A stretch of 64,000 bases of DNA, from contig JBBSVO010000006.1 of assembly GCA_038046805.1 (NCBI GenBank), forward strand, positions 172,976-236,975. Reading direction: 5' to 3'. The notes under the pieces were generated by a model that saw nothing but the letters and a program-made list of their open reading frames with translations, was not told the DNA's origin and made no database searches. Shown one piece after another: positions 5,577 to 31,170 of this stretch (the stretch's first letter is position 1; each line of letters starts with the position of its first letter). Made by a program: the position numbers and the translations under genes. Source of the DNA: Candidatus Micrarchaeota archaeon. GTDB taxonomy: Archaea; Micrarchaeota; Micrarchaeia; Anstonellales; Bilamarchaeaceae.

Positions 5577-5618
5577 AACATCTAAGGTTTTTTAAATAGT
5601 TGCCAATAATATAATTTC

Positions 5619-7147: not shown

Positions 7148-7203
7148 CTAATCACCAGTCCAGTTCTTTGGCCACATGATTTTATACCCTTATCTCTGAA
7201 TCG

Positions 7204-7467
7204 GTGAATTGCATATATTTTTATACTTTATTCTACCAAAGTATACTCATGTATACTACCATAAAAATTGCAGAAGAGCTTAAGGAAAAACTAAGCAATA
7301 TGCGGACATATGAAAGCGAGACATATGCTGAGATCATAGAAGACCTTATTGAAGACCGTCTTTCTCTCAACCCATCCTTCGTAAAAGAAATCGAAGAACG
7401 AAGAAGAGAGTACAAATCCGGAAAAACCATTTCTTTCGAAGATCTGAAAAAAGAGATGAAACGATAA
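7204..7467 (+). CDS. putative antitoxin (partner of RelE/ParE toxin)
   Basis: 87-aa acidic protein immediately upstream of, and overlapping, the toxin gene. Confidence 0.45.
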   Translation: MNCIYFYTLFYQSILMYTTIKIAEELKEKLSNMRTYESETYAEIIEDLIEDRLSLNPSFVKEIEERRREYKSGKTISFEDLKKEMKR

Positions 7468-7718
7468 TGTATTCTATAGATTTTACCGAATCCGCGCGAA
7501 AGGAGTTTCTACGTATGCCCACGCAGGAACAAGAGCGCATTGATAGCGTGCTTGATCGCATTAGATTAAAGCCCTACTTTTTTGCTATGCGTCTGAGCGG
7601 TTCAAAAGCATATCGTATCCGCGTTGGAAAATTGCGAATTATCCTGGATATCCTGGAAGAGAATCAGCAAATAATTGTTCTCAAGCTAGGAAATCGGGAA
7701 ACCGTATACTTACCGTGA
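7467..7718 (+). CDS. type II toxin RelE/ParE family
   Basis: 83 aa. YSIDFTESARKEFLRMP…KLRIGKLRIILDI…VLKLGNRETVY fits the RelE/ParE fold pattern. Confidence 0.6.
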   Translation: MYSIDFTESARKEFLRMPTQEQERIDSVLDRIRLKPYFFAMRLSGSKAYRIRVGKLRIILDILEENQQIIVLKLGNRETVYLP

Positions 7719-8426
7719 TTTCGCAATCCCCAGACACTCCTCCTTAGTCAATGTGCGGACGCGCCGTTTTGCAAACTCTTCCGGTGCGACAATTCCTGCG
7801 TGTGCATGCGCCAGAGCATTGCGCACGGACTGGTTTTTATGCTGGAAAAGAATTCGGATTATTTCCTCATCGTGTTTTGTGATTTTTGTTCCGCTCGGAA
7901 CTAAAGTAATCATTTCCGAATCCACTTTCGGTGCAGGAGAAAACAAATGCCTCGGAACTTTCTGGACAAGTTCAACATCAAACGCGAGTTGTGCGGTTAC
8001 CGACAGGCGGCCATAATTCGAATCGTTCGGCTTTGCAACCATTTTCTCAGCGAATTCCTTCTGGATAATAAGAACCGCGCGTTCGAAATCATAATCCTTC
8101 AAACGAAATATTATCGCGGATGAAATGTAATAAGGAATATTACCCATAATTATGTCTGCGTGGATTGGTTCAATCTCCAGAAAATCATCAGTGATAACGT
8201 CCACGTGCGGATTCCCATTAAATTTATCTTTCAATCCGCTTGCGAGTTCCTTGTCCTTCTCAATCGCGAGCACTTTAAGCGCACCGCCTTCTATTATCTT
8301 CTCGGTAAGCCGCCCGTCCCCTGCGCCAATCTCAAGCACAGTCTTGCCAACAACATCCGCAACCAAAACCTCCTTGCGTAAAATGTTCGCATCGCAGAGG
8401 AAGTTCTGACCCATTCGTGCCTTCAC
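7710..8426 (-). CDS. rsmA: 16S rRNA (adenine1518/1519-N6)-dimethyltransferase KsgA/Dim1
   Basis: GQNFL…VLEIGAGDGRLT…NIPYYISS motifs. Confidence 0.85.
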   Translation of the reverse strand: MKARMGQNFLCDANILRKEVLVADVVGKTVLEIGAGDGRLTEKIIEGGALKVLAIEKDKELASGLKDKFNGNPHVDVITDDFLEIEPIHADIIMGNIPYYISSAIIFRLKDYDFERAVLIIQKEFAEKMVAKPNDSNYGRLSVTAQLAFDVELVQKVPRHLFSPAPKVDSEMITLVPSGTKITKHDEEIIRILFQHKNQSVRNALAHAHAGIVAPEEFAKRRVRTLTKEECLGIAKSR

Positions 8427-8728: not shown

Positions 8729-9349
8729 ATGGACAAAACTAACGATTCAAAGCCAGGAACTCAAGACCAGAAAACGCTAAACCCAAAACACGAAGCGAGC
8801 AAACTGGTCGAGCCAGGCACATATCTGGCAGGAGCAGAAGAAGTACTTCCAGGACGAGGTACCTTTAGCGAAAATGACGAGATTTTTGCCGCAACTTTCG
8901 GTCATGTCGCATCAACCGAGCGTAACGCAATTGTTGATTCAAAGAAGCGTATTCTTGAGATAACTGTCGGAACAGAGGTTTACGGAATCGTAACCAATGT
9001 TATGGATAGTAAGGCACTTCTTCAGATTATTCCATTAAGCGATGACAAGAATGCGAGATTCCCTCCATCCGAAACTGCAGTGCTAAAAGTATCATCTATT
9101 TCCCCTTCATTCATTCGTGATATTCGTGATGGCATACGTATAGGTGACATTGTCCGTGCAAAGGTTTTCTCCACTCGTGACGGAATGGAAATAAGCATGC
9201 GCGAATCAACCGAATATGGCGTCATAAAAGCCTTCTGTTCAAGGTGCAGGCATGATATGATTCTTAAATCTGGTGGTCGTCTTATGTGCAGTTCATGTGG
9301 CTGGATGGAAAGCCGCAAGGTTTCAAAATTTTATTCTCTTAAGGAATGA
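8729..9349 (+). CDS. csl4: exosome complex RNA-binding protein Csl4
   Basis: S1-like domain plus C-terminal zinc ribbon (CSRCRHDM…CSSCGW). Conserved csl4-rpoL gene order. ATG at 8729 chosen to avoid overlap with the DUF357 gene. Confidence 0.7.
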   Translation: MDKTNDSKPGTQDQKTLNPKHEASKLVEPGTYLAGAEEVLPGRGTFSENDEIFAATFGHVASTERNAIVDSKKRILEITVGTEVYGIVTNVMDSKALLQIIPLSDDKNARFPPSETAVLKVSSISPSFIRDIRDGIRIGDIVRAKVFSTRDGMEISMRESTEYGVIKAFCSRCRHDMILKSGGRLMCSSCGWMESRKVSKFYSLKE

Positions 9350-9368
9350 TGTTTTGTGAGGTGTCTTT

Positions 9369-9644
9369 ATGGAAGTTTTGATTTTGATAAATGAAAAAGG
9401 AACGCTCGAATTTGAAATGAAAGACAGTGATTCATCGCTTGGAAATCTTCTTGTTTCGAAACTTAATGATGAAAAAGGAGTGGAATTCGCTGGTTTTAAG
9501 GTAGAGCACCCATCTGAAAACAGGTGCAGCGTCATAGTTAAAACAAAGAAAGGTGACCCAGTCAAACTTGTAAATGAAAAACTTTCAGAAATTGAAGAAG
9601 AGCTCGAGTCATTCAAAAAGGATTTTAAGGCAGCAGTGAAATAA
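9369..9644 (+). CDS. rpoL: DNA-directed RNA polymerase subunit L (Rpo11)
   Basis: 91 aa. LEFEMKDSDSSLGNLL…VEFAGFKVEHP is the typical Rpo11 pattern. Confidence 0.8.
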   Translation: MEVLILINEKGTLEFEMKDSDSSLGNLLVSKLNDEKGVEFAGFKVEHPSENRCSVIVKTKKGDPVKLVNEKLSEIEEELESFKKDFKAAVK

Positions 9645-9680
9645 ATTAACCGTGAATATTATTCTCACTGTCGTGTTCCT

Positions 9681-10694
9681 ATGAAACTTAGCGATGCACT
9701 TCGTTCTCCAAAATATCAAGCGATAATACTGGTAGTCCTGCTCGCATTTTATCTTCTTTCTCCAAACGATTTTTTCAGGGTTATTTTCGGTATCTTAACT
9801 GCCCTTACATTTCTGGCAATGGTTGCACTTGAAATGAAATCTGGTGTTGATCAGCAGGGATGGAAAAACGAGATTAAGGATACTGCCGTGTTAATTATTG
9901 TGGTTTTGATCTTCTGGTTTGCAATCCAATTCCTATTGAATACGTCCTCTCCAATCTCTGCGGTTGTTACCTGTAGTATGCTTCCAAATCTCCAACGCGG
10001 AGATTTTGCAATCGTGCAGGGTGCGATTCCAAACGCGCATGAAATAGAATTAACGAAAGCGGAATTACAGCAATTGTTCGGAAAGAGCACACTCATTTTC
10101 AATGGTACAAATACGGAAGTTTTCGGTTCTGCATATTCGTATTGCCTTGGCGTTGGTTCCGGGACTCAGTTATGCGCCGCGTTTGTAAGCAGTCCGGAAT
10201 CCATCACTGAGGTCCGCGGACCATTGGAATTCAAATATTCAAAATGCAATCTTGACAAGAAGACCGCAAGTGGCGGAAACAACGGAAACAGCGGCAGCGC
10301 GATAATCCGATATGAAGAGCCGTGCGTGAGCGAAGTCATCCTTTCAGCGAGCGGCAAATCTTTCAAACCAAATTACAATAACGACGTCATAGTCTATCAG
10401 CCAGCGAAATACGAATATTATTCACTTAGCGGAGATATAATCCACCGAGCCTATTTCAAAATCAGGGTGCAGGAAACAGGAGAATTTTATTTCCTTTCAA
10501 AAGGAGACAATAATCCCGTGCTGGATATCCAGGTTTTTGATTATTATATCGGAATGGGCAATGAGCCTATCTCAAAACAGAAGCTAAAAGGAAAATTAAT
10601 TGCCAAGGTTCCGCTTCTCGGTTACTACAAGCTTCTTCTCTCAGGTTTTTTCACAGAACCGCCACAATGCGCAACGTTGTTGGAACAGAAGTAG
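9681..10694 (+). CDS. membrane protein with signal-peptidase-I (S26/Sec11)-like core
   Basis: N-terminal TM helices followed by CSMLPNLQRGDFAIVQG, resembling the SMxPTLxxGD catalytic-Ser motif. Carries a long C-terminal extension. Confidence 0.4.
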   Translation: MKLSDALRSPKYQAIILVVLLAFYLLSPNDFFRVIFGILTALTFLAMVALEMKSGVDQQGWKNEIKDTAVLIIVVLIFWFAIQFLLNTSSPISAVVTCSMLPNLQRGDFAIVQGAIPNAHEIELTKAELQQLFGKSTLIFNGTNTEVFGSAYSYCLGVGSGTQLCAAFVSSPESITEVRGPLEFKYSKCNLDKKTASGGNNGNSGSAIIRYEEPCVSEVILSASGKSFKPNYNNDVIVYQPAKYEYYSLSGDIIHRAYFKIRVQETGEFYFLSKGDNNPVLDIQVFDYYIGMGNEPISKQKLKGKLIAKVPLLGYYKLLLSGFFTEPPQCATLLEQK

Positions 10695-17091: not shown

Positions 17092-17230
17092 ACTATTCAT
17101 CGTCTCGCAAACTACGAAGTTGTTTTTTTTGACTTCGGATATTATGGATGGTCACCTCATATTAGTGGTTTGCTATAATGTGGCCTCTCTTTTTATTCTT
17201 TGTTTTTCATTATATCCCCAGTTGATTAGC

Positions 17231-18700
17231 ATGCAAATTGACAAACACTCCAAGTTCTCAGAATGGTATAATACGATTACAAAGGATGCCGAGCTGTGCG
17301 ACCTCAGATATAATCTTAAGGGCTTTATTGTTTTCATGCCATGGGCGGTCATGAGCATGAAGCGTATGTATTCCATTTACGAGCGCGAACTCGAAGCACA
17401 CGGGCACGTTCCTGCATTGTTTCCAGCACTTATCCCCGAGAGCAATTTTAAGGGGGAAAAGGAGCATGTTGAAGGATTTATTCCGGAAGTGTTTTGGGTT
17501 ACCGAAGCAGGCAGGGAAAAACTTGAGGAAAGATATGCGATGAGGCCGACAAGTGAAACTGCCATGTACCCGATGTATTCTCTCTGGATTCAGGGTTTGA
17601 AAGATTTGCCTCTCAAAATCTATCAGAGCTGTCAGGTGTGGAGACACGAAACCAAAGCCACAAGACCATTCATTCGTTCGCGTGAGTTCTGGTGGATCGA
17701 AGCACATGATGTTTTTGCTACTGAACAAGAAGCATTTGCACAGGTTAAAGAAGATATGGAAACTGCAGAGAAGATCATTCACGGTGTGTTCGGAGTCCCA
17801 TTTCTATTCTTCAAACGGCCGCAATGGGATAAGTTCGCAGGAGCAGATGATACTTATGCAGCAGACTGCATAATGCCGGATGGCCGTGCCCTTCAGTTGC
17901 CTTCAACACATATGCTTGGTCAGCATTTTTCAAAGGCTTTTGGCGTAAAATATATGGATGCTGAGGGGAAGGAACAGTATGGATGGCAGACGTGTTACGG
18001 TCCATGCATTTCAAGAATTTATGCTGCAGTAATCTCAGTTCACGGGGATGATAAAGGTCTTATTCTTCCGTTTGAACTTGCCCCAGTCCAGGTCGTAATC
18101 GTTCCGATTTACAAGGGTGAAAACAAAAAAATCGTTGATTCCGAGTGCGGAAAAATTGAAAAAATATTGCGGGAAAGCGGAATAAAAGTGAAGTTCGACA
18201 ATTCCGAGAACACGCCTGGCTTCAAGTTCAATCATTGGGAAATGAAAGGGGTTCCGCTTCGTGTTGATATAGGTGAGCGGGACATTTCAAACAAAAGCGT
18301 AGTTGTAGTGCGTCGCGATAACCGTGAAAAATCATTCGTGAAAGTTGCGGAACTTATTGAAAAAATAAACAAATCTGCAAAAGATGTTTCAAATTCCATC
18401 AGGGAAAAAGCCGATCAATGGTTCAAAGGCAAGGTCAATTCTGCAACAACTATGAAAGAGCTATCAAATATCCTCGAAACAACTGGTGGATTTGTACGTG
18501 TTCCGTTCTGCACTGATGAAATGGAAGGAGAAAAATGTGCGGATAAGATAAAGGAGGAAACCCATGCGAACATGCGCGGTTCTCTTTTTGAAGGAAGAGA
18601 AATCGGAAAAGAAGGAAAAGAAAAGCCAAAAGAATCCGAGAAATGCATCGCGTGCGGGAAAAAGGCGAAAATCTATTTGTATGCGGCGAGACAATACTAA
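17231..18700 (+). CDS. proS: proline--tRNA ligase (archaeal/eukaryotic type)
   Basis: Class II motifs (FRSREFWWIEAH) and FSEWYN start region. ORF 17120 carries a likely spurious N-terminal extension. Confidence 0.85.
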   Translation: MQIDKHSKFSEWYNTITKDAELCDLRYNLKGFIVFMPWAVMSMKRMYSIYERELEAHGHVPALFPALIPESNFKGEKEHVEGFIPEVFWVTEAGREKLEERYAMRPTSETAMYPMYSLWIQGLKDLPLKIYQSCQVWRHETKATRPFIRSREFWWIEAHDVFATEQEAFAQVKEDMETAEKIIHGVFGVPFLFFKRPQWDKFAGADDTYAADCIMPDGRALQLPSTHMLGQHFSKAFGVKYMDAEGKEQYGWQTCYGPCISRIYAAVISVHGDDKGLILPFELAPVQVVIVPIYKGENKKIVDSECGKIEKILRESGIKVKFDNSENTPGFKFNHWEMKGVPLRVDIGERDISNKSVVVVRRDNREKSFVKVAELIEKINKSAKDVSNSIREKADQWFKGKVNSATTMKELSNILETTGGFVRVPFCTDEMEGEKCADKIKEETHANMRGSLFEGREIGKEGKEKPKESEKCIACGKKAKIYLYAARQY

Positions 18701-19126: not shown

Positions 19127-21271
19127 TTAAGCAGCCAGGGCAGTTATTCTATCAGCTATTCTTTCGGCATTTGTATTCCTACATATGACAAATGGAATTC
19201 CCCTGCTTCTGCATATCGATGTTGCGCTTCCGGATGCGTTGTGGCCGATATGAGTTACTACTATCACAACTGTGTCGTTCTCCCCAATCGCAGCGGCAAT
19301 CGCGCTGGGTTTTACATAACTTCCGTCTATAACTCTTACTTCCTTTCCAGTTCTTTCAGCCAATGTGTCTTGGATATTTGTCATGATGTTGCCACCACAA
19401 ATCACGATAATTCTTCCAACGCTTGTTTGCACAGCAACACCTTTTTCATCAATATAATTTTGCATTATTTCTATAATAGTTCTTTCTCGGGTTTCTGCGT
19501 TGTGTTCCCGAGATCCTGCTACTGCATTAATCCAATCCAGAATCTCTTTTTCATCGGCTGCAATCAACCTGACGAGTTCTGCAAACGTCCTGCGTGCATT
19601 GTCTGATGCAAAGATTGTTTTAAGTGAAAAATCACTAAGTCCTGCAGTTATTCCTGCAATTCTTGCAAGAGCATCTACACCATGCTCCCTGAGACTGCTG
19701 AATCTGGTTGGCCTGACGCCATTTCGTTCAAGTCGTACGTATACTCCTCTGAATAATCTTACTTGGTCATCTTCTATATCTGGAAATGCCCTTTTTACCA
19801 GGGCTTCAATCCCAAGTTCTTCCTCACGTTTTTTCCCTTCCTTTCGCCTATCTATTATTTCTATAGCATTTTCTAATTCCCCATATTCCATTGCTTGCAA
19901 TGTTGCTTTTGCAATTTCCCTATCTTCCGCATTTCCAGTAAGGAACAGAGCAAGATCTTTCCATCTTTCGGATATGAAAATTATCGAGGCAGCCCTTATG
20001 ATTTGGGCAAGCTCTGTAATATGTACGCTTGGTTCTATCTGTTTTAGTAGACTATGGAATGTTGCGTTTCCTGAGTTATTTACTGTCTCTTCAGCAATCT
20101 CCAGGATATATGCGAGAAAATCAGAACGACTTACCATTCTTTTTGGCTCAGTAAGTCTCTTATATAACTCCAGGTACTCCGGGGTTGTTTCAATTTTTTT
20201 CAATATTTTTATCGCGGTTTGCACAGTTAACCCTCCAACCAATTCAAAGGCGCAAGATTCCTTTTTTACCGCAAACACATCAAGTAATCCCGTGAGTTCC
20301 TTTAGTTCTTCAAATCTCCTGGGGGTTATCCATCTTTGATTTTCCATAACTGCTCTTGCAGTTCTATCAGTTTTTATTCCTCTTACAATTTCAGCAGCTT
20401 CGTCCAGCACTTGCGTGTCAAAGAAAAGGAGATATGGGCAAAGTCCTGCTTCGCTTGCAAGCATGCTCTTTCCCAACACCGTGTCCATTCTTTGCTCGTA
20501 CATTGCGTGTACATTTGCGCTTTTTTTCGCGTGGGTATAACAGATTGCCTTGAAACATGCAGTCTTTGTCCATTCTTTTTCAGAAATGAATTCCTTTGCA
20601 ATTCCTAAAAATCTATCAATAAATGTCCGGATGTGGGTGCGGACTTCTTCATCCATGTAGCATCTTATTCCACTCATATATTCTCTTAGTGCACATTTTC
20701 CAACATTAAGCATGTGTTCCATATTTCCTGGATCAAGGATTGCACGTATGTCATCTCTCAAACTGGGGCTTATTGCTACGCCTAAATTGCAGCTGGTTCC
20801 TTCCAAACCATCTATCGCTCTCAATGTTTCTATGATTCTGCTATATCTTTCACTTGCGCCTTTGTCTAAATCGTCATATCCTAGTGTTACGGTTTCCTCC
20901 AGTCTTTGTGTAATGCGTTCAGTTGCAGGCCCTGCGATTTCATCAAGTGCTCTATCTAGTTTTGCAAAACTTTCCTCCAATTTAGCAATAACCCGTTTTT
21001 GGTTTCCTTCAGAATTCGCCATCAAATCTATAATCCCCAAATATGTAGTATCCATTTCATGTATCCTTGTATCAAAAAGTTCTTGTCCTTTTACCAGATC
21101 CTCTGCTTCTAACCCCAAGCTATTCAGTACGTCTCGCTTATTTTGGAGAAATAATTGTCTTAGCTCTTCTCCAAGTTGTCTTAGTCTTTCACGTTCCGGG
21201 GTGTGGAAATTAGGTCCACCCACACTTCGTATTCTTGCAGCTGGCGGAATCCTGAGCATTAGCTTTGGCAT
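19127..21271 (-). CDS. large hypothetical protein with DUF2325-like C-terminal domain
   Basis: 714 aa and mostly helical. The C-terminal ~90 aa (VIDGSYVKPSAIAAAIGENDTVVIVVTHIGHNASGS…GIPFVICRNTN) fits the DUF2325 pattern. Confidence 0.45.
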   Translation of the reverse strand: MPKLMLRIPPAARIRSVGGPNFHTPERERLRQLGEELRQLFLQNKRDVLNSLGLEAEDLVKGQELFDTRIHEMDTTYLGIIDLMANSEGNQKRVIAKLEESFAKLDRALDEIAGPATERITQRLEETVTLGYDDLDKGASERYSRIIETLRAIDGLEGTSCNLGVAISPSLRDDIRAILDPGNMEHMLNVGKCALREYMSGIRCYMDEEVRTHIRTFIDRFLGIAKEFISEKEWTKTACFKAICYTHAKKSANVHAMYEQRMDTVLGKSMLASEAGLCPYLLFFDTQVLDEAAEIVRGIKTDRTARAVMENQRWITPRRFEELKELTGLLDVFAVKKESCAFELVGGLTVQTAIKILKKIETTPEYLELYKRLTEPKRMVSRSDFLAYILEIAEETVNNSGNATFHSLLKQIEPSVHITELAQIIRAASIIFISERWKDLALFLTGNAEDREIAKATLQAMEYGELENAIEIIDRRKEGKKREEELGIEALVKRAFPDIEDDQVRLFRGVYVRLERNGVRPTRFSSLREHGVDALARIAGITAGLSDFSLKTIFASDNARRTFAELVRLIAADEKEILDWINAVAGSREHNAETRERTIIEIMQNYIDEKGVAVQTSVGRIIVICGGNIMTNIQDTLAERTGKEVRVIDGSYVKPSAIAAAIGENDTVVIVVTHIGHNASGSATSICRSRGIPFVICRNTNAERIADRITALAA

Positions 21272-23324: not shown

Positions 23325-23960
23325 CTACATCTCGCGTAGCTCTTCAATTTTTTTCCTTTTCCATTTCTTGAACTCCTGGAAATCCATGCCAAGATATTTT
23401 ATGTCATTGTCACTGAAGTTTGCAATAACCGCCACGAGCTCTTTTTTGTAATCTTCATTTTCATCAAGTTTGTATTCTTTTAGAAGTGCAATATATTTTT
23501 TCAAATCCACCGGAGCGTAAATCAATAAAGTCAAAATATCTATGGAATCTTTTATTCCCTTTACTGAATTCCGCCTTGCTATTTCCGCTCCTTGTTTGAG
23601 AATCAGCAGAGCCTCTGGCTTTATGGTTTTGATGTTCTGAACTTTGGTAGTATGGTCCTTCATTATATCGTTCACTGGTAGTGTCAATTCAGAAAAGAAC
23701 GGAACATATATGTCAATATCGAATTTTTCAAGCTTTATCTCGTATTTGTGGAGCCGTTCGTTCTTTTCCAGTCGGTAGTTTTGCTGCAATTTCGCCAGAG
23801 TTTCATAATCAACAATAATGTCGATATCCTTTGACTTGTGTTTGCCAGTCCACAAATAAGCTGCCCATCCGCCAATAAGCACGAAATCAATCTCCTTTGA
23901 CAGCTCCTGCAGCCTTTCCCAGCTCGCTTGCGTGACAAGTTCATTCCAAAATTCATTCAT
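23325..23960 (-). CDS. nucleotidyltransferase, AbiEii-like (putative type IV TA toxin)
   Basis: LIGGWAAYLW…SKDIDIIVD resembles the GGtA…S.DIDl minimal-NTase motif. Overlaps the upstream wHTH gene by 4 nt. Confidence 0.45.
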   Translation of the reverse strand: MNEFWNELVTQASWERLQELSKEIDFVLIGGWAAYLWTGKHKSKDIDIIVDYETLAKLQQNYRLEKNERLHKYEIKLEKFDIDIYVPFFSELTLPVNDIMKDHTTKVQNIKTIKPEALLILKQGAEIARRNSVKGIKDSIDILTLLIYAPVDLKKYIALLKEYKLDENEDYKKELVAVIANFSDNDIKYLGMDFQEFKKWKRKKIEELREM

Positions 23961-24559
23961 GCCAAAACCCCATCAATTTTTTTCTCAAGCGCCTGCAAAA
24001 ATTCCTTTGCGTACCAAGAGTTGATGTTCCATAAGTCAACGAACATATTCGCAATTGAGCAGATGCTTTTTTCCGTAGTTTCATTCAGGTGCGAATCCAC
24101 TTCGAGCATAATCAGATTTGGAGGGCCGTCCTTTTTCGGAAACTGTCTCTTGAATTCCTTTAGCACCTCATCATCCGCGTAAACATAAATCTCGCTGTAG
24201 TCTGCTGGTACATCGTCGAATTTGAATTTATAGGCGCTGTACGCGGTGTAAACAACTCCTTGCGGCATGTTCTTTTCTATTTCCTTTATCGTTGTATCCA
24301 CTCGCGTTTGATAAATAATATTCTTTGATAAATTCCTTTTGCTTGCCCAGAACAAGAGCAGTTTTTTCGGGTCAATCAGCCTGAATCCCATAGGGGTTTT
24401 CCTTATTGCGCCCATTTCTTCAGTAGGCCTGAGCGCGTAATTCACAGTGCTTAGCGAAATTCCAAGCTTTTTGGCTATCGCTAATTGCGTGAACTGAAAT
24501 TGGCCTTTCTCAATGCGCTGGTAAAGCAGCTCTCGGTATATCCACTCGCTCCTCTGCAT
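23957..24559 (-). CDS. winged-HTH regulator, AbiEi-like (putative antitoxin)
   Basis: N-terminal HTH (LAIAKKLGISLSTVNYAL). Gene order of wHTH then NTase as in AbiE. Confidence 0.4.
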   Translation of the reverse strand: MQRSEWIYRELLYQRIEKGQFQFTQLAIAKKLGISLSTVNYALRPTEEMGAIRKTPMGFRLIDPKKLLLFWASKRNLSKNIIYQTRVDTTIKEIEKNMPQGVVYTAYSAYKFKFDDVPADYSEIYVYADDEVLKEFKRQFPKKDGPPNLIMLEVDSHLNETTEKSICSIANMFVDLWNINSWYAKEFLQALEKKIDGVLA

Positions 24560-24616: not shown

Positions 24617-25315
24617 TTATTCATTCAACGGCGGAACATATTTCCGTAATATGACTCTCTCACGTTCAACTCCAAGACTTTCCGCAAATTCAATGTACTC
24701 TTCTGCTGTTCTTGTTTTCACTTCTCCATCATCAAATCCTATAACAAAACTTGCAAATGTGGCTATTCCACTTTTAATACAATTCCGGACGAATTCAATC
24801 AATCTTCCGAACGCATCCTCGTCTTTCCATCTTGGTCTGGATATGGCCGCGTATTCATCGCGGTTTATCGCATTAACCGAAATTCTTATTTCATCAAGTC
24901 CAGCTTCTCTTAATTCTTGTGCCGGATTTCCATCCCTCCAGCATTTTACTAATCCATTCGTGTCTATTCGCATTCTTCCTGTAAACCCACCCGATTTTGT
25001 TCCAGTTATTACTTTACATGCAAGCTCAAATTGCAAAAGCGGTTCTCCAAGTCCAACAAATGCAACCTCACTCGTGTCCGAGCCAATGTTTGCCCTCAGT
25101 TCACGCAATACCTCTTCTGTCAATGGTGCCTTTGCTAGCCACAACTTTGCGCCAGCCTTTTTCTCGTATATATTTGCTTTGCCTTCTATTGCTGCGCCTC
25201 TGCTGCAAAACCTGCATGAATTCGAACAAGAATAACTCGGCACTATATTCACATATAAAATATCCGCTTTTGGGTCATACGGGGTTGCAAACTGGTATAC
25301 TATCCTGTTCTTCAT
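24617..25315 (-). CDS. small radical SAM protein (function unknown)
   Basis: CSNSCRFC CxxxCxxC cluster. 232 aa with no SPASM domain. Overlaps the aaRS-like gene by 4 nt. Confidence 0.6.
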   Translation of the reverse strand: MKNRIVYQFATPYDPKADILYVNIVPSYSCSNSCRFCSRGAAIEGKANIYEKKAGAKLWLAKAPLTEEVLRELRANIGSDTSEVAFVGLGEPLLQFELACKVITGTKSGGFTGRMRIDTNGLVKCWRDGNPAQELREAGLDEIRISVNAINRDEYAAISRPRWKDEDAFGRLIEFVRNCIKSGIATFASFVIGFDDGEVKTRTAEEYIEFAESLGVERERVILRKYVPPLNE

Positions 25316-26280
25316 TCCATCACCTCCCGTATTTTACCAGGAAATTTTTCAAAATCTGCCCCGTAGTTCGTAAGTAAGGCAAACATCATTCGTTCCAGCC
25401 CGATTCCAGTGCAACCACTCCACAATGCTGTGCAGTTCTGACCAGTAATACTAAATCTTGAAGTCAGGATGGTTGAGAGAACCGCGCTGCCAGCGACTTC
25501 CAAAAATGAGCTTCCGTTTCTGTATCCCGGGCAATATATTTCCAAGTCTTTAACCGGTATTTCATCTAATGTTTGCGGAGGCCCTAGCTCCCCGGGTTTT
25601 ATCTCGTAGCATCCACTACCAACAACTATCCGGTATTCTAATCCTAAATCAACGCATAATCTTTCCAATCGGGCAAGGCATTCCTCTCTAATTTGTATGG
25701 TCTGAGCTTTAGTTCCCAAATATATAAATTCTGCCCTATGGAACTCCCTTTGTTTCACAAGAGGAACTATCTTATCAGAATCCTCGTTTCTATATGTTGG
25801 GCCAGAGCAATCAAACCATTTTACGGGCAGGGAACTTGGCTCTATCACGTTTCCTTCAAATATCTGATAAAATGTTGTACATTGCAAGGGATCCATAAGA
25901 TATTCTTCCCTGACGCCTTTCGTACTTGAAAATGGTCTGACTACAATTAAATAGTCATCCCAATTACCGGTAATTCCTGCTTTTCTAAACGTTTTCACTG
26001 GGGCAATTTTTGGCAGGACTACTTCCTCAAAGACAAGCGGTTTTTGCATATCCTCCGTAAGCAACGTGCAAACCGCATTCAGAAGTCTCGTTCCTTTTGG
26101 CAATAGCACATACTGCCCTGAGCCTCTTACGAATTCCTTACAGATATCATTTTCAGCGCGAGCATCAAAGCCCCCCGGGGTCCCTCTAAATCCTTTCTTC
26201 CCTCTTTTGATTAATGCGCCCTCGGTTGTCGGAATTTGTTTGGTTGCAGTTGTCAAAATTGGCATGATATGTTCGCTCAA
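25312..26280 (-). CDS. class II aminoacyl-tRNA-synthetase-like catalytic-core protein (no anticodon-binding domain)
   Basis: Motif-2-like YRNEDS…REFHRAEF and motif-3-like GCTGIGLERMMFALL, class IIa flavour. 322 aa. Confidence 0.5.
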   Translation of the reverse strand: MSEHIMPILTTATKQIPTTEGALIKRGKKGFRGTPGGFDARAENDICKEFVRGSGQYVLLPKGTRLLNAVCTLLTEDMQKPLVFEEVVLPKIAPVKTFRKAGITGNWDDYLIVVRPFSSTKGVREEYLMDPLQCTTFYQIFEGNVIEPSSLPVKWFDCSGPTYRNEDSDKIVPLVKQREFHRAEFIYLGTKAQTIQIREECLARLERLCVDLGLEYRIVVGSGCYEIKPGELGPPQTLDEIPVKDLEIYCPGYRNGSSFLEVAGSAVLSTILTSRFSITGQNCTALWSGCTGIGLERMMFALLTNYGADFEKFPGKIREVME

Positions 26281-26321
26281 ACCCCTTATTTATATATTTA
26301 TCCTCCCAAAAGAGACTACAC

Positions 26322-27053
26322 ATGAAAGAAGACATTCTGGAGGATTTGGGGCTGTCAAAAGCCGAGATAAAAGTGTATATTTCGCTTCTTGAACTGGGCA
26401 GCTCCAGCGCGGGCGCAATCCTTCAAAAATGCGGGCTTCAGAATTCCGTAACCCATCGTGCACTTAACAGTCTCATAGAAAAAGGATTAATCAGTTACAT
26501 CACTGAAGGAAAAAGGAAAACCTACCAGGCAACCAGCCCGGATTTCTTTTATGATTTTATCGAAGATAAGAAAACAAGGTTTGAGTTGCTGCTTCCGGAA
26601 TTAAAGAAAAAACAGGAGGGGGCCGAGGCCAGGAGCGAGGCAATGGTTTACAAGGGCAAAAAAGGAATAAACGAAATCTACAATCGCTTGTTGAATTCCG
26701 GAGAAAAGGAATACCTTACTTTTGGTGGCGGCAAGCGCGTCACTTACGAAGTTATGGGCGAAGACTGGTGGAAGCTTTTACATTCAAAGCGAATTGCAAG
26801 AGGGATTCGTGCAAGGCAGGTCTTTGACGAAACAATAAGAAAATTCGGAGATGAACTCAACAAACGTCCGTTGTCGCGCGTTCGTTTTCTTTCCCAGGAA
26901 TTCGAACAATTGACTGAAACCGTAATCGTTGGCGAATGTGTGGCTATTGTTATGTTCACAGAAAATCCATACGGCATCCTGATAAGAGACAAGTCTGTTG
27001 CCGACAGTTACAGGAAAAATTTTGAAATTCTATGGGAAAAGGCGAGGAAGTAG
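26322..27053 (+). CDS. TrmB-family transcriptional regulator
   Basis: N-terminal wHTH (LSKAEIKVYISLLELGSSSAGAILQKCGL). Divergent from the aaRS-like/radical SAM pair. Confidence 0.6.
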   Translation: MKEDILEDLGLSKAEIKVYISLLELGSSSAGAILQKCGLQNSVTHRALNSLIEKGLISYITEGKRKTYQATSPDFFYDFIEDKKTRFELLLPELKKKQEGAEARSEAMVYKGKKGINEIYNRLLNSGEKEYLTFGGGKRVTYEVMGEDWWKLLHSKRIARGIRARQVFDETIRKFGDELNKRPLSRVRFLSQEFEQLTETVIVGECVAIVMFTENPYGILIRDKSVADSYRKNFEILWEKARK

Positions 27054-27062: not shown

Positions 27063-28529
27063 TCAGTACCTGTCCAATGCGCCATACTGAAATTTCGGGA
27101 AGTAAACGCTCCCACCTATAAATTCCCGCATTATTGAATCTGGAGGTATTTGTGCGATCTGCCCCGCTGTTGCAGTCTCCAATTTATCAAACAGTGCACA
27201 TACTCTTTTCGCACGCAAAAGAGCATCTCCTAGTTGCTTATCAGATTGCCGTTCAAAAATTCCAAGGTACTTTCTGAAAAATCTTTCGGCATGCATCTTG
27301 AAAATAGGCAGTTCGTAAGCAAGCCCGCCGTTGATTCTAACATCTGCGGTATTGATCAACGGGAACATGGACCCCTCTCCTTTTCGTACAAGATACCAGT
27401 GCACCAACGTAAGCAGCGTATCCTGCCCTCTTGTGGCAACATCCCTGAGCATCCTTCTTATAAGGCGTACATCTGTCCATCTGGTATATCTCTCTCCGTC
27501 GTGTATTGTGTTCATTGCCTCTATATAGAGCTTGAATTTTTGTTCGTTCGGGACTGCCGAGGTCAGGTCTGGATAAAGTCCGTGCAGGCAGTCAAATACC
27601 AGCACTTCGTTTGGCCCGAGCGCTTGAAATTCCGTATGGTTCGGAATGATCTGCCCGGTTCCGAAATCATATTTCGGAATCCAAACAACTTCCCCGCGTA
27701 TTATCCGTTCAAGCACTTCATTAAGTGCCTCAAGGCCGTATGCAAACGGTGTTTCATAATCCCAGTCGCTTACCTCTTTTCCATCAATTACATAAGCATG
27801 CCTCTGGTTTGAGGTTTTTGGCTGGAAGAACATATCCACCTCAAGAGGCCTGAAGGTTGTCTTGCCACGGGTAATATCATTTATTGTCCCGCAAATCCTG
27901 TTCGCAGTAGTTGTTTTCCCAGAAGATGATGGCCCGCATACTATAAGCATGCGCAATCCTGTCCGCCCAAGGAATTCCTGTGCCGCATTTTCAAGCTCAA
28001 CGTGTTTTTGCGCTTCTGCTGCACGGATAAGCTCGCGAGCATCTCTTTCCCTTCCACCGAACCAGGCATTTAATCCTTCAATGGTATGACAATCATGCTC
28101 TTCGTTCCATTTATATACTCTTGAAACTTCCGTGCGCGGAACTCCATCAACAGTAAATTGATCAGCACGGATCAGCCCCCTTTCCACAAGCTCGACTCCT
28201 GCGCCATAAAGCAAATATTCTTCTGCGAGTTCGTATGCACCAATGTTCCACATCGCCTGTTTTACCGCATTTTGGACCTCGCCCCTAGTCGCGGTTTCCC
28301 TTTTTGTTCCGACAAGCGTCTCCACCGCCGAATCGGTTAAATCCCTTGCCCTTTTCATCGCTGGCCCAAAAGGACAATGCTCGGTTCGCATTATCGCATC
28401 GGCTATTGCCTGTCTTATCGGAGCCCTGTTAAAATCAGTTTTTGCTCCTTTAATCGGCTGGAAATATTTTAGTGCTACTGCCATAAAATTTATGTTGTGG
28501 AAACAATATTTAAACCTTGTTTTTACCAC
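27063..28529 (-). CDS. ATP-cone-like N-domain + P-loop kinase (uridine kinase/PRK-like fold)
   Basis: IVCGPSSSGKTTTANRI Walker A of UK/PRK type. N-terminus (FNRAPIRQAIADAIMR) is ATP-cone-like. Confidence 0.45.
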   Translation of the reverse strand: MVKTRFKYCFHNINFMAVALKYFQPIKGAKTDFNRAPIRQAIADAIMRTEHCPFGPAMKRARDLTDSAVETLVGTKRETATRGEVQNAVKQAMWNIGAYELAEEYLLYGAGVELVERGLIRADQFTVDGVPRTEVSRVYKWNEEHDCHTIEGLNAWFGGRERDARELIRAAEAQKHVELENAAQEFLGRTGLRMLIVCGPSSSGKTTTANRICGTINDITRGKTTFRPLEVDMFFQPKTSNQRHAYVIDGKEVSDWDYETPFAYGLEALNEVLERIIRGEVVWIPKYDFGTGQIIPNHTEFQALGPNEVLVFDCLHGLYPDLTSAVPNEQKFKLYIEAMNTIHDGERYTRWTDVRLIRRMLRDVATRGQDTLLTLVHWYLVRKGEGSMFPLINTADVRINGGLAYELPIFKMHAERFFRKYLGIFERQSDKQLGDALLRAKRVCALFDKLETATAGQIAQIPPDSIMREFIGGSVYFPKFQYGALDRY

Positions 28530-28545: not shown

Positions 28546-29583
28546 TTACTGCAAAATCCGTTCTTCTTCTTTATAGTCGTGGTGATGAATCGGCCTTAGC
28601 CTGAGCATTGACGGGTCAATACCATATGTGGCTTCAATTCTATCCCTAATGTTTCTATCCACTCTCGCGAGCAGGAATTGTCTTGCATTCTCGGGCCCGG
28701 AATGCCCGCATAGGCGCATTGCGTCGAAAAGCACCTGTTTTCCAGTTTCGGCTCCAAATTTGTCAAGCACTGCTAGGCATTCAAGATAAAGCATGAAATT
28801 TTCCACACAGCTGAAGGCAACTGCAGTGGCATCACCGATAATCATTCCTGCGGTTCTGTTCAAAACCCAGATTGCATTGGCACGCATTTTATCCAGTCCT
28901 GAGTTATCCGTCCCGACCAGAAATCTTACAGAGTATTTTGCAAGAAGGGAATTTACTAATAATCTCTTTAGAATCTCTGTTTCATTGTATCTTCTGGATA
29001 GCACGTTATCTTCGTACGCATATGCTGCGGATTCTTCCAATGGGTTAGTCCATGCGCCAACAGATGGTATTTTCAATCCTGCAACCATTGCATGAAATTC
29101 CTCATGAACCTTTGTTCCGAAATCACCAGAGCGCCGCACATCCGAATAAACGATTTTTCCATCATAATACACCCCAGCATTTTCGCGCAGGCATGCGAAT
29201 CCGCCATTGCCATTACCCCTTGCCTTTTCCAATTCCCCGATTGCCGTTTTTTTGGCATCTAGTCTGGGCAACCCATTTCCGAATACTGTAACTGAAGCAG
29301 TAATGACGTGCCTGTCGCATACCGTAATATCTGCCATGAACTGTCTTTTCTTTAAAGCGGGCATGCAGTTTATTGTCTGTAGTATGTTATAAAAAATAAT
29401 CGTACGATGCTGTCGCAGATGTATCGGTATCCTTTTTATTATTTCTCTTTCAAACACCTTCAGGTGATAATATGCCAAGCTGTTTAAAATGTCAGGATTC
29501 GATGCCAGATACAATGTTTTTCCCGTGTTATCTTGAGCAACAAGGGGGAACCGTATATTATTGTTGGAACTGTTATGGAACAA
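28546..29583 (-). CDS. hypothetical protein with HExxH motif
   Basis: VHEEFHAM motif. No other recognisable domain. Confidence 0.35.
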   Translation of the reverse strand: MFHNSSNNNIRFPLVAQDNTGKTLYLASNPDILNSLAYYHLKVFEREIIKRIPIHLRQHRTIIFYNILQTINCMPALKKRQFMADITVCDRHVITASVTVFGNGLPRLDAKKTAIGELEKARGNGNGGFACLRENAGVYYDGKIVYSDVRRSGDFGTKVHEEFHAMVAGLKIPSVGAWTNPLEESAAYAYEDNVLSRRYNETEILKRLLVNSLLAKYSVRFLVGTDNSGLDKMRANAIWVLNRTAGMIIGDATAVAFSCVENFMLYLECLAVLDKFGAETGKQVLFDAMRLCGHSGPENARQFLLARVDRNIRDRIEATYGIDPSMLRLRPIHHHDYKEEERILQ

Positions 29584-29625: not shown

Positions 29626-30387
29626 TCATTCAAGCGCATTGTAACTATCCGTCTCAAACGTACAGTTCTTTTCGAGCGCGCCCGCGATTTCCCAGCAAAT
29701 CTTTTCCTTTATCTTCATGTAGCTCTCGCGCCCGACCTCAACATTCCCGATTGCGTAATTCTTATTTTTCACATTAAAACAGAACATTGAATTATGCACA
29801 TTCTCAACATTATGGCAGAACATTGAATTGGAACAATTCCGTGCTAAATCCATCTCCATGCATGCGGAAAGGTTTGAGGTATTGTAGCATTTCATGCAGA
29901 ATTTTGAAGACGCTACACGATAGCAACCAAATAAGGATTCCGAATCTATTGTTGAGAATGAATATGCGGCATTCCTAGTTTTGAAAATGTCAAACGATTT
30001 GTACACGTTGATGCAGTCCAGGTACTCCGTAGTCTCGGATACGTTTATGTTCGTTCCTTCCACGAAATCCGGGACGAATAATGCGTTCTGTTTGAGTTTT
30101 TCCGTTATTGTCGAGAGCGTTTCGTTCGCTCCAATTTCAATTTTTTTGTTTTCCGCTTGCTGCAAATTGTTCCATGAAACCACTTTCCCGCGCGGGATTT
30201 TTCCAAAGAATGCGTAGTTTGGGAGGTATGTGCTTCCAGTCCCGATAACCGAGCGGATGGTTTCGCCATTCGAAATCCGTGCGGAAAACCAATCCTCGAA
30301 TTTGTCAAGTGGCGAGAGTGCGGTTCCGATTATTAATCTTGTAGTAGTTCCGAACGATTTTTCCAGTTCAGGATTTGTGTTTGCCAT
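29626..30387 (-). CDS. Cys-rich repeat protein, C-module (split form)
   Basis: Homologous to the C-half of 3369..4952 (CMEMD…NSMFCFNVKNKNYAIGNVEVGRESYMKIKE). Confidence 0.55.
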   Translation of the reverse strand: MANTNPELEKSFGTTTRLIIGTALSPLDKFEDWFSARISNGETIRSVIGTGSTYLPNYAFFGKIPRGKVVSWNNLQQAENKKIEIGANETLSTITEKLKQNALFVPDFVEGTNINVSETTEYLDCINVYKSFDIFKTRNAAYSFSTIDSESLFGCYRVASSKFCMKCYNTSNLSACMEMDLARNCSNSMFCHNVENVHNSMFCFNVKNKNYAIGNVEVGRESYMKIKEKICWEIAGALEKNCTFETDSYNALE

Positions 30388-30396
30388 GATAATGCC

Positions 30397-31170
30397 TCAC
30401 GTATCCGGCCCAGCAATCTCGAACAAGGACGGAAATTTCTTATTCCGTGCGAGTTCATCCGCAATTTCCGCAATAAGTTTAGCTTTCAGTACAAGATACT
30501 TCTCTTTCGGCAATTCATTATTTCCGATTATGTTCCGCTTTGAAGTCTGATTAAATGAAAACAAAGCATCGTGACAGCTTCGGCAATTGAAAGAAAAGAA
30601 AAGGTCAGACGAATTTATGGAAAGATACGCTTCAAGGCATCGCACGGATTTGAATGTCACCTGCGTTCTTATTGCAAACCTTACTTCGCCAACAAGCATG
30701 CATCCATAAACGTTTTCGCATTCCCTTGCTCCGTAGGTATATGCGACGTTTTTCGAACGTATGACCTGGTGCGAAGCCAGTGTAAACGCAGCATCATTGC
30801 ACGCATCGCTTTGCTCAACTTCAACACAATTGCCAATATTACTATTCCCGCAATAGTAAAGCCGCTCGCTTATAGCGGAACGGATTGAATCAATATCCTT
30901 TATGTCGTTCACATTGATGGCAGGAGTCGCCTGCTTATCAATCTCGTCAAGCGAGACAAATCCCGCCTCGCGCGAGTAATATTTTCGTGATAAATACACG
31001 TCCTTTCCCGATATCGCAGACCGCATCAGAAGCGGCTTCTCAACCATTTCTGAAAGATATTCTTGACATTCCGAAAGCTGTCCGATTTCCTTTCCGAGGA
31101 GGATTTTTGCGGTAGAAAAAAATTGCGAATCGAAATCCATCTGGTGCCCCCAACAAACTACACTACTCAA
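30397..31170 (-). CDS. Cys-rich repeat protein, N-module (split form)
   Basis: Homologous to the N-half of 3369..4952 (LLGKEIGQLSECQEYLSEMVEKP…IKDIDSIRSAISERLYY…FSFNQTSKRNIIGN). Confidence 0.55.
   Translation of the reverse strand: MSSVVCWGHQMDFDSQFFSTAKILLGKEIGQLSECQEYLSEMVEKPLLMRSAISGKDVYLSRKYYSREAGFVSLDEIDKQATPAINVNDIKDIDSIRSAISERLYYCGNSNIGNCVEVEQSDACNDAAFTLASHQVIRSKNVAYTYGARECENVYGCMLVGEVRFAIRTQVTFKSVRCLEAYLSINSSDLFFSFNCRSCHDALFSFNQTSKRNIIGNNELPKEKYLVLKAKLIAEIADELARNKKFPSLFEIAGPDT

Follow-up and report, generated by a model that had tools for sequence, protein, structure and literature searches.

Paralogues of aminoacyl-tRNA synthetases (aaRSs) that operate outside translation, such as the amino acid:carrier protein ligases, EpmA, GluQRS, AsnA and HisZ, have each revealed unexpected chemistry. 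In type-2 seryl-tRNA synthetase (SerRS), a PF18490 domain reads the variable arm of tRNASer. In the EpmA (PoxA)/EpmB (YjeK)/EF-P system, an aaRS-core paralogue and a radical SAM enzyme are found together, with the partner or target gene next door; EpmA is derived from LysRS, and EpmB, with ~340 aa, is a lysine 2,3-aminomutase that depends on PLP. In E. coli, the radical SAM gene epmB lies divergent to the target gene efp. TrmBL2, which the regulator described below resembles, is a chromatin protein and global repressor of the Thermococcales. For the catalytic core described below, the best functional analogy is offered by the amino acid:[carrier protein] ligases Bll0957 and Atu2573 (PDB 3MEY and 4H2W; Mocibob et al. 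2010, as cited in PMC9437257), which are likewise stand-alone, zinc-dependent, derived from type-2 SerRS, devoid of tRNA binding and non-translational.

The locus studied here is a three-gene cassette at positions 24617–27053 of the window, the whole 64,000-nucleotide stretch of DNA analysed, which comes from a tiny, symbiotic DPANN archaeon (Micrarchaeota). The initial annotation had recognised three open reading frames here, two of them overlapping by 4 nt and the third, of the TrmB family, divergent, and this layout is confirmed (Table 1). The core stop and the start of the radical SAM enzyme (rSAM) share the letters ATGA ('...gtg atg gaATGAag aac...'). The second core start in the table is preferred because the NCBI start is placed there (P0001) and the N-termini of homologues line up at this point. 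By Pfam, the core matches PF00587 at 57.8 bits (cutoff 29.3), the sole Pfam domain found in it, the rSAM matches PF04055 at 48.7 bits (cutoff 29.5), and the TrmB-like protein matches the TrmB winged-helix domain PF01978 at 50.0 bits (cutoff 25.6). An Rfam search of the window gave no matches, and no tRNA genes were found in it. The window also holds a second rSAM gene (587–1729), which is unrelated to that of the cassette.

Table 1. Features of the cassette, in coordinates of the window.
Feature	Position	Strand	Remarks
aaRS-like class II catalytic core, stand-alone, type-2-SerRS-like	25312..26280	-	322 aa from TTG 26280
Alternative core start	ATG at 26265	-	317 aa; likelier than TTG 26280
Minimal radical SAM enzyme (rSAM)	24617..25315	-	232 aa
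TrmB-family DNA-binding protein, TrmBL2-like architecture	26322..27053	+	243 aa; divergent from both enzymes
Conserved control element	26286..26318		within 41/56-bp divergent intergenic region

The closest sequence relatives of the core are the type-2 SerRSs of M. barkeri (2CIM) and M. kandleri (3W3S). A profile of the family searched against the PDB found 3w3s with an E-value of 8e-42 and 2cim with 7e-38. PRK00960 matches the core at 150 bits, over model positions 310–504 only, and both type-2 SerRS equivalogs miss it (NF002120, 150.7 bits against a cutoff of 611; TIGR00415, 112.5 against 489.6). The two groups share class II motifs 1–3, a Cys/Glu/Cys zinc site and a C-terminal 'LWSGC.G.G.ER' signature. 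In the alignment, motif 1 of the core falls at P90/K91, and motif 2 spans Y163-R164-N165-E166 and E179-F-H-R182-A-E184, the motif 2 arginine being R164 of 'YRNE'. Motif 3 is G289-C290-T-G292-I-G294-L-E-R297 ('GCTGIGLER') and includes C290. Motifs 2 and 3 had been named in the initial annotation, and the assignments hold on alignment, with 'REFHRAEF' forming the second strand of motif 2 and carrying the zinc ligand Glu184. The putative zinc triad, C134/E184/C290, occupies the alignment columns of 2cim chain residues 326/375/481, that is, C306/E355/C461 of MbSerRS. Residues P90/K91, R164/E166, E184, C134, C290, G292 and R297 show little or no variation. Residue roles were taken from a review (PMC7373986) and alignment numbering.

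Unlike type-2 SerRS, the core has neither the ~185-aa N-terminal tRNA-binding domain (PF18490) nor the insertion that follows motif 1 and precedes the first zinc ligand, and its gene lies in an operon with an rSAM. Aligned with the full-length proteins P0085/P0086, all DPANN members lack the ~185 N-terminal residues, and no open reading frame that could supply a tRNA-binding domain in trans was found in the 552 kb of window and loci. The lack of an anticodon-binding domain, remarked upon earlier, is real, but it is this N-terminal domain whose loss is relevant. A further difference lies at the site where every full-length type-2 SerRS in the alignment carries (T/A/D)-Pro-Trp/Phe and the core carries G-x-G-Cys. 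Residues G221 and C224 of this segment are specific to the clade, and a cysteine occupies position 224 in 38 of 38 sampled stand-alone relatives. We take the Pro-Trp/Phe position to be the start of a substrate-ordering loop (W396 in MbSerRS); the placement of C224 relative to the active site is likewise presumed from the sequence alignment and from what is known of the MbSerRS structure. Judged by sequence, the core is a zinc-dependent derivative of methanogen-type SerRS and a member of an undescribed clade of stand-alone cores of ~300–360 residues, which is sizeable, judging by sequence libraries. Our literature searches found no published description of the clade or of its pairing with an rSAM.

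Comparison with the amino acid:[carrier protein] ligases sets the core apart from them as well. It is related to them only distantly: it scores 50.1 bits against their equivalog NF005479 (cutoff 357), the family profile reaches only 47 bits against 3mey/4h2w, and the active-site loop reads 'GxGC' where the ligases have 'DPFF'. Its partner is an rSAM rather than a carrier protein. Clustering of the open reading frames in ~60 loci returned rSAM, TrmB-like and aaRS-like genes only, with no carrier or any other fourth gene recurring, so the carrier-protein or substrate gene that was to be sought nearby in related genomes did not appear. Because of the score, the missing carrier gene and the divergent loop, we rejected an identity as an amino acid:[carrier protein] ligase. 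No LysRS/EpmA models were among the HMM matches of the core, nor KamA models among those of the rSAM, and by HMM and PDB comparison the core is not AsnA, HisZ, EpmA or another assigned enzyme. The earlier description of a stand-alone aaRS core is thus borne out, in the specific form of a core derived from type-2 SerRS, and the likeness it drew to the ligases does not extend to membership.

The rSAM contains the cluster motif C30-x3-C34-x2-C37 and the SAM motif GLGEP (residues 88–92), and its cluster cysteines and G88-L-G-E-P92 are invariant. A family motif, NIYEKKAG, occurs at residues 48–55, and an auxiliary-cluster domain is absent. The AF2 model shows a confident minimal core (pLDDT 89.6) of the partial TIM-barrel kind that matches rSAM cores at a probability of 1.00, and the only structural neighbours are small-molecule rSAM enzymes of a generic sort, among them BlsE, NifB, HydE, viperin and MoaA. 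PDB sequence and fold searches likewise returned generic rSAM cores only (TM 0.5–0.65, 11–23% identity) and gave no functional assignment. The best HMM matches are TIGR04038 ('TatD family nuclease-associated radical SAM'; 97 bits) and TIGR04100 (91 bits), families that are to our knowledge themselves uncharacterised. Classification by HMM therefore upholds a radical SAM enzyme but leaves it below the TIGR04038 cutoff of 129.7 bits. True members of TIGR04038 (L064 and L066) score 162–171 bits and align with the DPANN rSAM over its full length at 31–34% identity, but the TIGR04038 and TIGR04100 families sit elsewhere, near an MFS transporter, an MBL-fold hydrolase and an OYE-type flavoenzyme. 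Against models of tRNA-modifying rSAMs, nothing significant was found (TYW1, E 0.015). A role in defence was also considered and dropped, as PADLOC returned nothing for the core and the similarity of the rSAM to viperin is weak and generic (E 6e-6).

Twenty distinct DPANN loci contain the core; in 14 of them both flanking genes are visible, and 6 are cut by contig ends. In every one, the core lies directly upstream of an rSAM, with an overlap or a gap of no more than about 60 nt. These loci span DPANN phyla, with identities of 37–68% and unrelated flanks, and the recurrence greatly exceeds what chance would give. Outside DPANN, two lineages have a core of the same clade joined with an rSAM within an SsuA/NMT1-type ABC importer operon. 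One (L075; GC 30%) has the order core, rSAM and SsuA/NMT1-type binding protein, followed further along by an ABC ATPase and a permease; in the other (L073/L074; GC 62%), a binding protein is followed by an rSAM::core fusion (P0294), an ATPase and a permease. Each part of one module has its homologue in the other, and the fusion was found on 9 contigs. Adjacency in DPANN, the L075 pair and the natural fusion strongly support the functional link between core and rSAM that the initial annotation had drawn. The non-DPANN rSAMs belong to a different subfamily from the DPANN rSAM (no blastp similarity; hhalign probability 65–85%), so what recurs are enzyme types, not strict orthologues. The DPANN cassettes lack the transporter seen in the non-DPANN modules. 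A tandem Lrp/AsnC-like regulator adjoins in 4 loci only.

The core family is missing from all 0.6–1.6 Mb DPANN contigs that bear a TrmB-like or rSAM gene alone. Of the 33 informative loci, 13 have the DPANN rSAM but no core, and on the rSAM tree these are interspersed among the others. These core-less loci indicate that the rSAM is able to work alone, unless the genomes concerned encode a core elsewhere. We also rejected a single clade of aaRS-linked rSAMs, since the contexts are interleaved on the neighbour-joining (NJ) tree, which carries no support values. As far as gene content and sequence can tell, the cassette marks an undescribed enzyme system whose pairing is repeated in unrelated microbes.

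The TrmB-like protein comprises a winged helix (residues 1–70), a long helix (75–102) and a C-terminal domain with a PLD-like fold (106–240). Its fold is nearer to TrmBL2 than to TrmB (E 7e-15 versus 3e-9), and TrmBL2 (PDB 5BQT, 5BPD) is a structural match over the full length, neither protein having the sugar-binding subdomain. Pfam gave no match past residue 73, hence a sugar-binding effector domain was not seen. The two proteins are similar in length (243 versus ~264 aa) but share only ~20% identity, and with the NCBIfam TrmBL2 model the score is 15.6 bits (cutoff 530). As with TrmBL2, the family is very highly conserved and apparently widespread in its lineage; unlike for TrmBL2, the promoter of the gene itself contains an inverted repeat that is specific and conserved, which suggests sequence-specific binding. 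The gene adjoins the enzymes in 19 of the 27 loci with enough flank, and its product, at 59–74% identity, is more conserved than either enzyme. Since the family is far larger and commoner than the enzyme families and also present without them, we regard the protein as a shared neighbour and probable regulator. The TrmB-family regulator foreseen in the initial annotation thus keeps its PF01978 winged helix, but proves to be a TrmBL2-like member of a widespread family and not a dedicated pathway-specific sugar sensor. In enzyme-less genomes, we found no shared small divergent partner of the TrmB-like gene, the neighbours of 150–181 aa being mutually unrelated.

The control element consists of an AT-rich, TATA-like box (cttatttatata) and then TTTATCCTCCCAAAAGAGAC. 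Its family consensus, TTTATCCTCC-N4-6-GGGAG, is an imperfect inverted repeat. Each locus has a single copy, in every case upstream of the TrmB-like gene and at a fixed distance from it, and the 552 kb hold no others; for the window, chance would give 0.03 copies against the one observed. An RNA hairpin was rejected because the right half-site varies without compensating changes, and the element is therefore a DNA site.

Our best reading, which we hold with moderate confidence, is that the two enzymes form a non-translational module coupling amino-acid activation to radical chemistry on a small molecule; for that function itself, we consider the chances evenly balanced. The stand-alone core would bind zinc and ATP and adenylate a small amino acid, or a metabolite resembling one, at its carboxylate, and neither tRNA nor a carrier protein would receive the activated product. 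The co-translated minimal rSAM, coupled to the core physically or metabolically, would perform radical chemistry on the same small molecule, be it the activated intermediate, a precursor or the product. Residue C224 probably re-tunes substrate specificity or serves as an internal thiol acceptor; as a rather unlikely option, it could hold the activated amino acid in an enzyme-bound thioester, which would make the cassette an aminoacyl-transfer system that feeds a radical enzyme without a carrier protein. The operon would be transcribed from a conserved bidirectional promoter that also serves the gene of the TrmBL2-like protein; this protein probably recognises the conserved inverted repeat and regulates transcription both ways. 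An aminoacylation-dependent modification or small-molecule pathway had been suggested for this locus, and our data support it; the importer context outside DPANN favours a small molecule over tRNA or protein modification, though it is not proof.

A tRNA-directed function, in which the core still acts on tRNA through a partner in trans or by nucleoside aminoacylation and the rSAM remodels the adduct, appears unlikely. GluQRS, which aminoacylates a modified nucleoside, would be the model for the second route and ArcS/RaSEA, in archaeosine synthesis, that for the remodelling, and we also counted the unusual tRNA biology of DPANN archaea in its favour. The core fully conserves motifs 2 and 3, with which SerRS also binds the 3′ end of tRNA, and a SerRS core without its tRNA-binding domain functions in a heterodimer, as in Drosophila mitochondrial SerRS2-alpha with SLIMP (PMC10817482). 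Against this, neither loci nor window offered an open reading frame resembling a tRNA-binding domain, tRNA genes are absent from the window, models of tRNA-modifying rSAMs give no significant match to the rSAM and the non-DPANN pair sits inside an importer operon. The family is also patchy; it is absent from the matches for several near-complete DPANN contigs of 0.6–1.6 Mb, which argues that the core is not a core translation factor.

We regard as somewhat more doubtful still the idea that the aaRS paralogue and rSAM install an amino-acid-derived modification on their TrmBL2-like neighbour, in the manner of EpmA/EpmB/EF-P. No neighbour other than the TrmB-like gene is conserved, this gene is more conserved than the enzymes, its divergent layout parallels epmB/efp, and the rSAM has the minimal, open core typical of protein-acting rSAMs such as PFL-AE. 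However, the TrmB-like family is much larger and also enzyme-free, the non-DPANN modules have a transporter and no TrmB-like gene, and the conserved promoter element provides a simpler, regulatory reason for adjacency. Unlike the Epm system, the present one is archaeal, with a SerRS-derived core and a 232-aa rSAM that is not a KamA/EpmB-type aminomutase, and has neither an EF-P-like target nor KamA similarity. If this protein-modification idea were true, the cassette would represent the archaeal equivalent of EF-P beta-lysylation, with a DNA-binding protein as its target. Lastly, that the core is simply the host's SerRS in a minimised DPANN version, with rSAM and TrmB as unrelated neighbours, is highly improbable: some sources do annotate it 'Type-2 serine--tRNA ligase' or 'seryl-tRNA synthetase' and its catalytic residues are intact, but it scores far below the equivalog cutoff, does not have the domain by which the variable arm of tRNASer is recognised, carries Cys at the site where all full-length type-2 SerRSs have Pro-Trp/Phe, is joined to an rSAM by translational coupling across phyla and by fusion in bacteria, and is patchy, being absent from large contigs that bear a TrmB-like or rSAM gene alone.

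The stand-alone, zinc-site-bearing, SerRS-derived cores with their diagnostic cysteine constitute a further clade of such paralogues, and in three distant lineages the sampled members occur in pairs or fusions with a small rSAM enzyme. If the small-molecule module is as we propose, ATP-dependent amino-acid activation joined to radical chemistry without tRNA or carrier protein would represent a new biochemical logic. In bacteria, the module lies within a sulfonate/taurine-type importer operon, which gives experiments a practicable way towards the substrate. The promoter element conserved with a ubiquitous DPANN TrmBL2-like protein provides a handle on transcription control in genetically intractable organisms, and the presence of the cassette in genome-reduced DPANN archaea suggests the supply or salvage of something otherwise unobtainable.

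The three open reading frames proposed in the initial annotation were reproduced at the same coordinates, with the overlap between the first two resolved as an ATGA stop/start junction; the radical SAM label of the 232-aa protein also stands (see the table below). We refer to the stand-alone class II aminoacyl-tRNA synthetase (aaRS)-like protein as the core, to its radical SAM partner as rSAM, and to these two with the divergent TrmB-like gene as the cassette. Identical proteins on a 279-kb 'Candidatus Micrarchaeota archaeon' contig place the window in a DPANN archaeon. NCBI starts the core at an ATG at 26265, giving 317 residues, and we prefer this start because the N-termini of homologues align there.

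Locations of the cassette, its promoter element, neighbouring genes and related modules in compared loci
Feature	Location	Strand	Remarks
rSAM gene, 232-aa ORF	window 24617-25315	-	PF04055 radical SAM, above Pfam cutoff
aaRS-like core gene, 322-aa ORF	window 25312-26280	-	PF00587 class II core, above Pfam cutoff
TrmB-like gene, 243-aa ORF	window 26322-27053	+	PF01978 TrmB, above Pfam cutoff
TATA-like box and inverted repeat	window 26286-26318		repeat match at 26297-26316
Second, unrelated radical SAM protein, 380 aa	window 587-1729	+	
ProRS	window 17120-18700	+	
714-aa protein	window 19127-21271	-	only recognisable part is C-terminal DUF2325
Two overlapping genes directly downstream of rSAM	window 23325-24559	-	4-nt overlap at 23957-23960
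488-aa protein	window 27063-28529	-	N-terminal ATP-cone, uridine kinase/PRK-family domain
Adjacent paralogous Cys-rich ORFs, 253 and 257 aa	window 29626-30387, 30397-31170	-	22% identity, E 1e-24
ProRS	L002 (Micrarchaeota) 9254-10693	-	
Lrp/AsnC-like regulator	DPANN loci L038 1278-2300; L045 5671-6660; L053 1405-1749; L061 505-1542		sequence inspection
rSAM::SerRS-like fusion (P0294) module	L073/L074 (non-DPANN) 6001-7878		
Separate core/rSAM pair in importer operon	L075 (non-DPANN) 364-6611		

The top family matches of the core are two models of type-2 (methanogen-type) seryl-tRNA synthetase (SerRS), aligned only over the catalytic part at their C-terminal end (positions 310-504 of the 518 in the model) with 150.7 and 112.5 bits (cutoffs 611 and 489.6); a model of ligases joining amino acids to a carrier protein (aa:CP ligases) ranks next at 50 bits (cutoff 357). 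Among solved structures, the core family profile best matched M. kandleri SerRS (3w3s, E 8e-42) and M. barkeri SerRS (MbSerRS; 2cim, E 7e-38), with mitochondrial ThrRS (1e-13) and then an aa:CP ligase (1e-11) lower. Both searches place the core nearest to type-2 SerRS, and its model scores lie far below the SerRS and aa:CP ligase cutoffs. In alignment with full-length relatives, the roughly 185 N-terminal residues of the tRNA-binding domain are missing from every DPANN core, as is the insertion after motif 1. The catalytic motifs are invariant, with P90/K91 in motif 1, R164-N-E166, E179, R182 and E184 in motif 2, and G289-C290-x-G292-x-G294-x-x-R297 in motif 3, along with the acidic residues D245, E247 and E261. 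The motif 2 and 3 assignments of the initial annotation were right in substance, with the refinement that REFHRAEF forms the second strand of motif 2, whose arginine is found in YRNE. Residues C134, E184 and C290 align with chain residues 326, 375 and 481 of 2cim, which, given a 20-residue tag offset, are C306, E355 and C461, presumably the Zn ligands of MbSerRS. The type-2 SerRS Zn site comprises Cys/Glu ligands and a water that is displaced by serine (PMC7373986).

Searched exhaustively with a profile, 1.84 billion representatives yielded 1188 relatives of the core. The DPANN family scored 360-514 bits, other stand-alone proteins of ~300-360 residues about 110-245 bits, and full-length type-2 SerRS (480-536 aa) about 120-190 bits. 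When residues were tabulated for 58 of these relatives, all 38 stand-alone proteins had a cysteine at position 224 of the window's core, in settings such as G-x-G-C-(Y/F/M)-E, D-S-C-F, S-S-C and E-P-C, and all full-length enzymes, with three fragments of them, read (T/A/D)-Pro-(Trp/Phe). The solved aa:CP ligase differs from the Cys-type cores in reading S-D-P-F-F there. C224 aligns with MbSerRS W396, which we take to open a loop that orders when serine binds. Nearly all members retain the Zn triad. Judged by these signatures, the Cys-type cores are a third kind of stand-alone SerRS-derived core, apart from true SerRS and aa:CP ligases; literature searches returned no description of the clade.

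The rSAM carries the cluster motif C30-x3-C34-x2-C37, the SAM motif GLGEP and family-specific invariant motifs such as NIYEKKAG. Its highest HMM matches, TIGR04038 (97 bits, cutoff 129.7) and TIGR04100 (91 bits, cutoff 262), are both below cutoff, and TIGR04038 is itself an uncharacterised family. A confident AF2 model (pLDDT 89.6) matches only generic radical SAM cores (BlsE, NifB, HydE, viperin-like, MoaA, LipA; TM about 0.5-0.65), and the predicted fold is that of a minimal core without an auxiliary domain. True TIGR04038 members in loci L064 and L066 are 31-34% identical to the rSAM, and their surroundings are unrelated to the DPANN cassette. In L063-L066, the true TIGR04038 ('TatD-associated') protein belongs to a conserved four-gene set with an MFS transporter, an MBL-fold Zn hydrolase (SoxH-related) and a 639-aa OYE/FadH-type flavoenzyme, another uncharacterised radical SAM module.

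The divergent TrmB-like gene, core and rSAM follow one another in this order in all four distant homologue loci (core identity 49-66%; Micrarchaeota, Nanoarchaeota, Woesearchaeota), whose flanks are completely different. Scanning metagenomes with the rSAM alignment contributed 57 further loci. Among unique loci, 14 hold all three genes, 6 hold core and rSAM and are cut by a contig end, 5 hold TrmB-like gene and rSAM only, and 8 hold rSAM with neither; 12 were too short to judge gene context. In every core-containing locus, the core is directly upstream of the rSAM, either overlapping it or at most about 60 nt away. On a neighbour-joining tree of the rSAM, the three contexts intermingle, indicating that the core was repeatedly gained, lost or moved elsewhere in the genome; near-complete contigs appear to bear the rSAM or TrmB-like gene alone, without the core. 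All-against-all clustering of 566 neighbouring ORFs returned only these three recurrent families and no recurrent carrier protein, transporter or other partner, so the carrier or substrate gene envisaged in the initial annotation does not recur near the cassette. Beside the cassette of four DPANN loci lies a tandem-duplicated Lrp/AsnC-like regulator (330-346 aa), placed in L038 between TrmB-like gene and core; it is possibly a hint of an amino-acid effector.

The TrmB-like protein is the most conserved of the three (59-74% identity across loci, against 44-66% for rSAM and 37-68% for core). The family has 696 matches; among the best 120, identity is 63-100% and length is exactly 243 aa in nearly all, and mean column identity is 76% across phyla. 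The gene also occurs beside unrelated small genes with neither rSAM nor core nearby. In its AF2 model (pLDDT 87.4), a winged helix and a long helix precede an alpha/beta C-terminal domain, which alone matches PLD-fold proteins; over its full length, the model fits TrmBL2 (E 7e-15) better than TrmB (3e-9). The TrmB-family label holds at the Pfam level, and the structure prediction makes the protein TrmBL2-like rather than a sugar-sensing TrmB.

Upstream of every TrmB-like copy (L001-L067 and the window) lies a conserved element, a TAT-rich, TATA-like box with the inverted repeat TTTATCCTCC-N4-6-GGGAG(T/C)A, found once per locus, with or without the enzyme genes, and nowhere else in the 552 kb of window and compared loci (window: 1 match observed, 0.03 expected by chance). 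In most loci its distance to the start codon is 60-62 nt, with a second TATA-like box following, against 21-23 nt in the window and L002. Conservation is stronger in the left half than in the right, and no compensatory changes link the halves, which makes the element a DNA site and not an RNA hairpin. The enzyme operon always begins across the element from the TrmB-like gene (41-56 bp from its start in the window). The simplest reading of this arrangement is a bidirectional promoter/operator to which the TrmB-like protein would bind, autoregulating its own gene; core and rSAM would, on this view, count as one among several alternative 'cargo' genes under this promoter.

Outside DPANN, two modules were sampled. 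In P0294 (625 aa), a radical SAM domain (PF04055, CSFACDYC) is naturally fused to a Cys-type core; the protein is found unchanged on 9 contigs, one of them from an NCBI genome. Its gene lies between one for an NMT1/SsuA-type binding protein (4-nt overlap) and those for an ABC ATPase and permease, in a bacterium of 62% GC, with a sigma-54 activator gene nearby. L075 (GC 30.5%) encodes P0283, the closest non-DPANN relative of the core (244 bits), followed by an rSAM, an NMT1/SsuA-type binding protein, a membrane-anchored winged-helix protein, a cytoplasmic NMT1-like paralogue (342 aa), an ABC ATPase and a permease. Part by part, the modules are 32% (core), 32% (rSAM), 47% (binding protein), 36% (ATPase) and 45% (permease) identical. 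Their rSAM signature, GPVxSRRLGRSLGINL...CxxxCxYC, marks a subfamily different from that in DPANN; blastp found no similarity between the two, and hhalign gave 85% and 65% probability. Fusion and pair together make the association of a Cys-type core with a small rSAM recurrent, and gene order ties it, outside DPANN, to the import of a small solute handled by the sulfonate/taurine/NMT1 class of transporter. In the representative library, P0312 (649 aa) has an aldo/keto reductase domain (PF00248, 206 bits) N-terminal to a Cys-type core.

Other genes surround the cassette. Both Micrarchaeota loci have an archaeal-type ProRS a few kb or less from the cassette, which probably reflects local synteny and not a functional link. 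The pair downstream of rSAM encodes a 200-aa winged-helix protein (HTH_24/RepL-like) and a DUF6036 nucleotidyltransferase of 211 aa; it resembles a toxin-antitoxin pair of the AbiEi/AbiEii type and is not conserved in other cassette loci. The 488-aa protein is an unusual fusion, convergent with the TrmB-like gene and not conserved beside the cassette elsewhere. Neither the 253-aa Cys-rich ORF nor a 345-aa ORF at 28546-29583 has a Pfam match.

From an intact adenylate-forming Zn-site core without tRNA-binding parts, its obligatory coupling to rSAM and the importer context elsewhere, we infer small-molecule activation. The core would use ATP to activate a small amino acid or amino-acid-like metabolite, and the rSAM would act on the same molecule, either in its activated form or a step earlier or later; C224 would re-tune specificity or act as a thiol acceptor within the enzyme, much as the phosphopantetheine thiol does for aa:CP ligases. 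We give this reading roughly even chances. A tRNA-directed role, perhaps with a partner in trans, for which Drosophila SerRS2-alpha/SLIMP is a precedent (PMC10817482), is unlikely: no examined locus has a tRNA-binding-domain-like ORF, and the window has neither a tRNA gene nor a SerRS. That the pair modifies the neighbouring TrmBL2-like protein in the manner of EpmA/EpmB seems quite improbable, and that the core is a minimised housekeeping SerRS is hardly credible.

The finding is real and conserved, and adds a variant to the theme of aaRS paralogues outside translation. The system is marked by a diagnostic signature in its sequence and by a radical SAM partner that recurs, and it is tractable by experiment.
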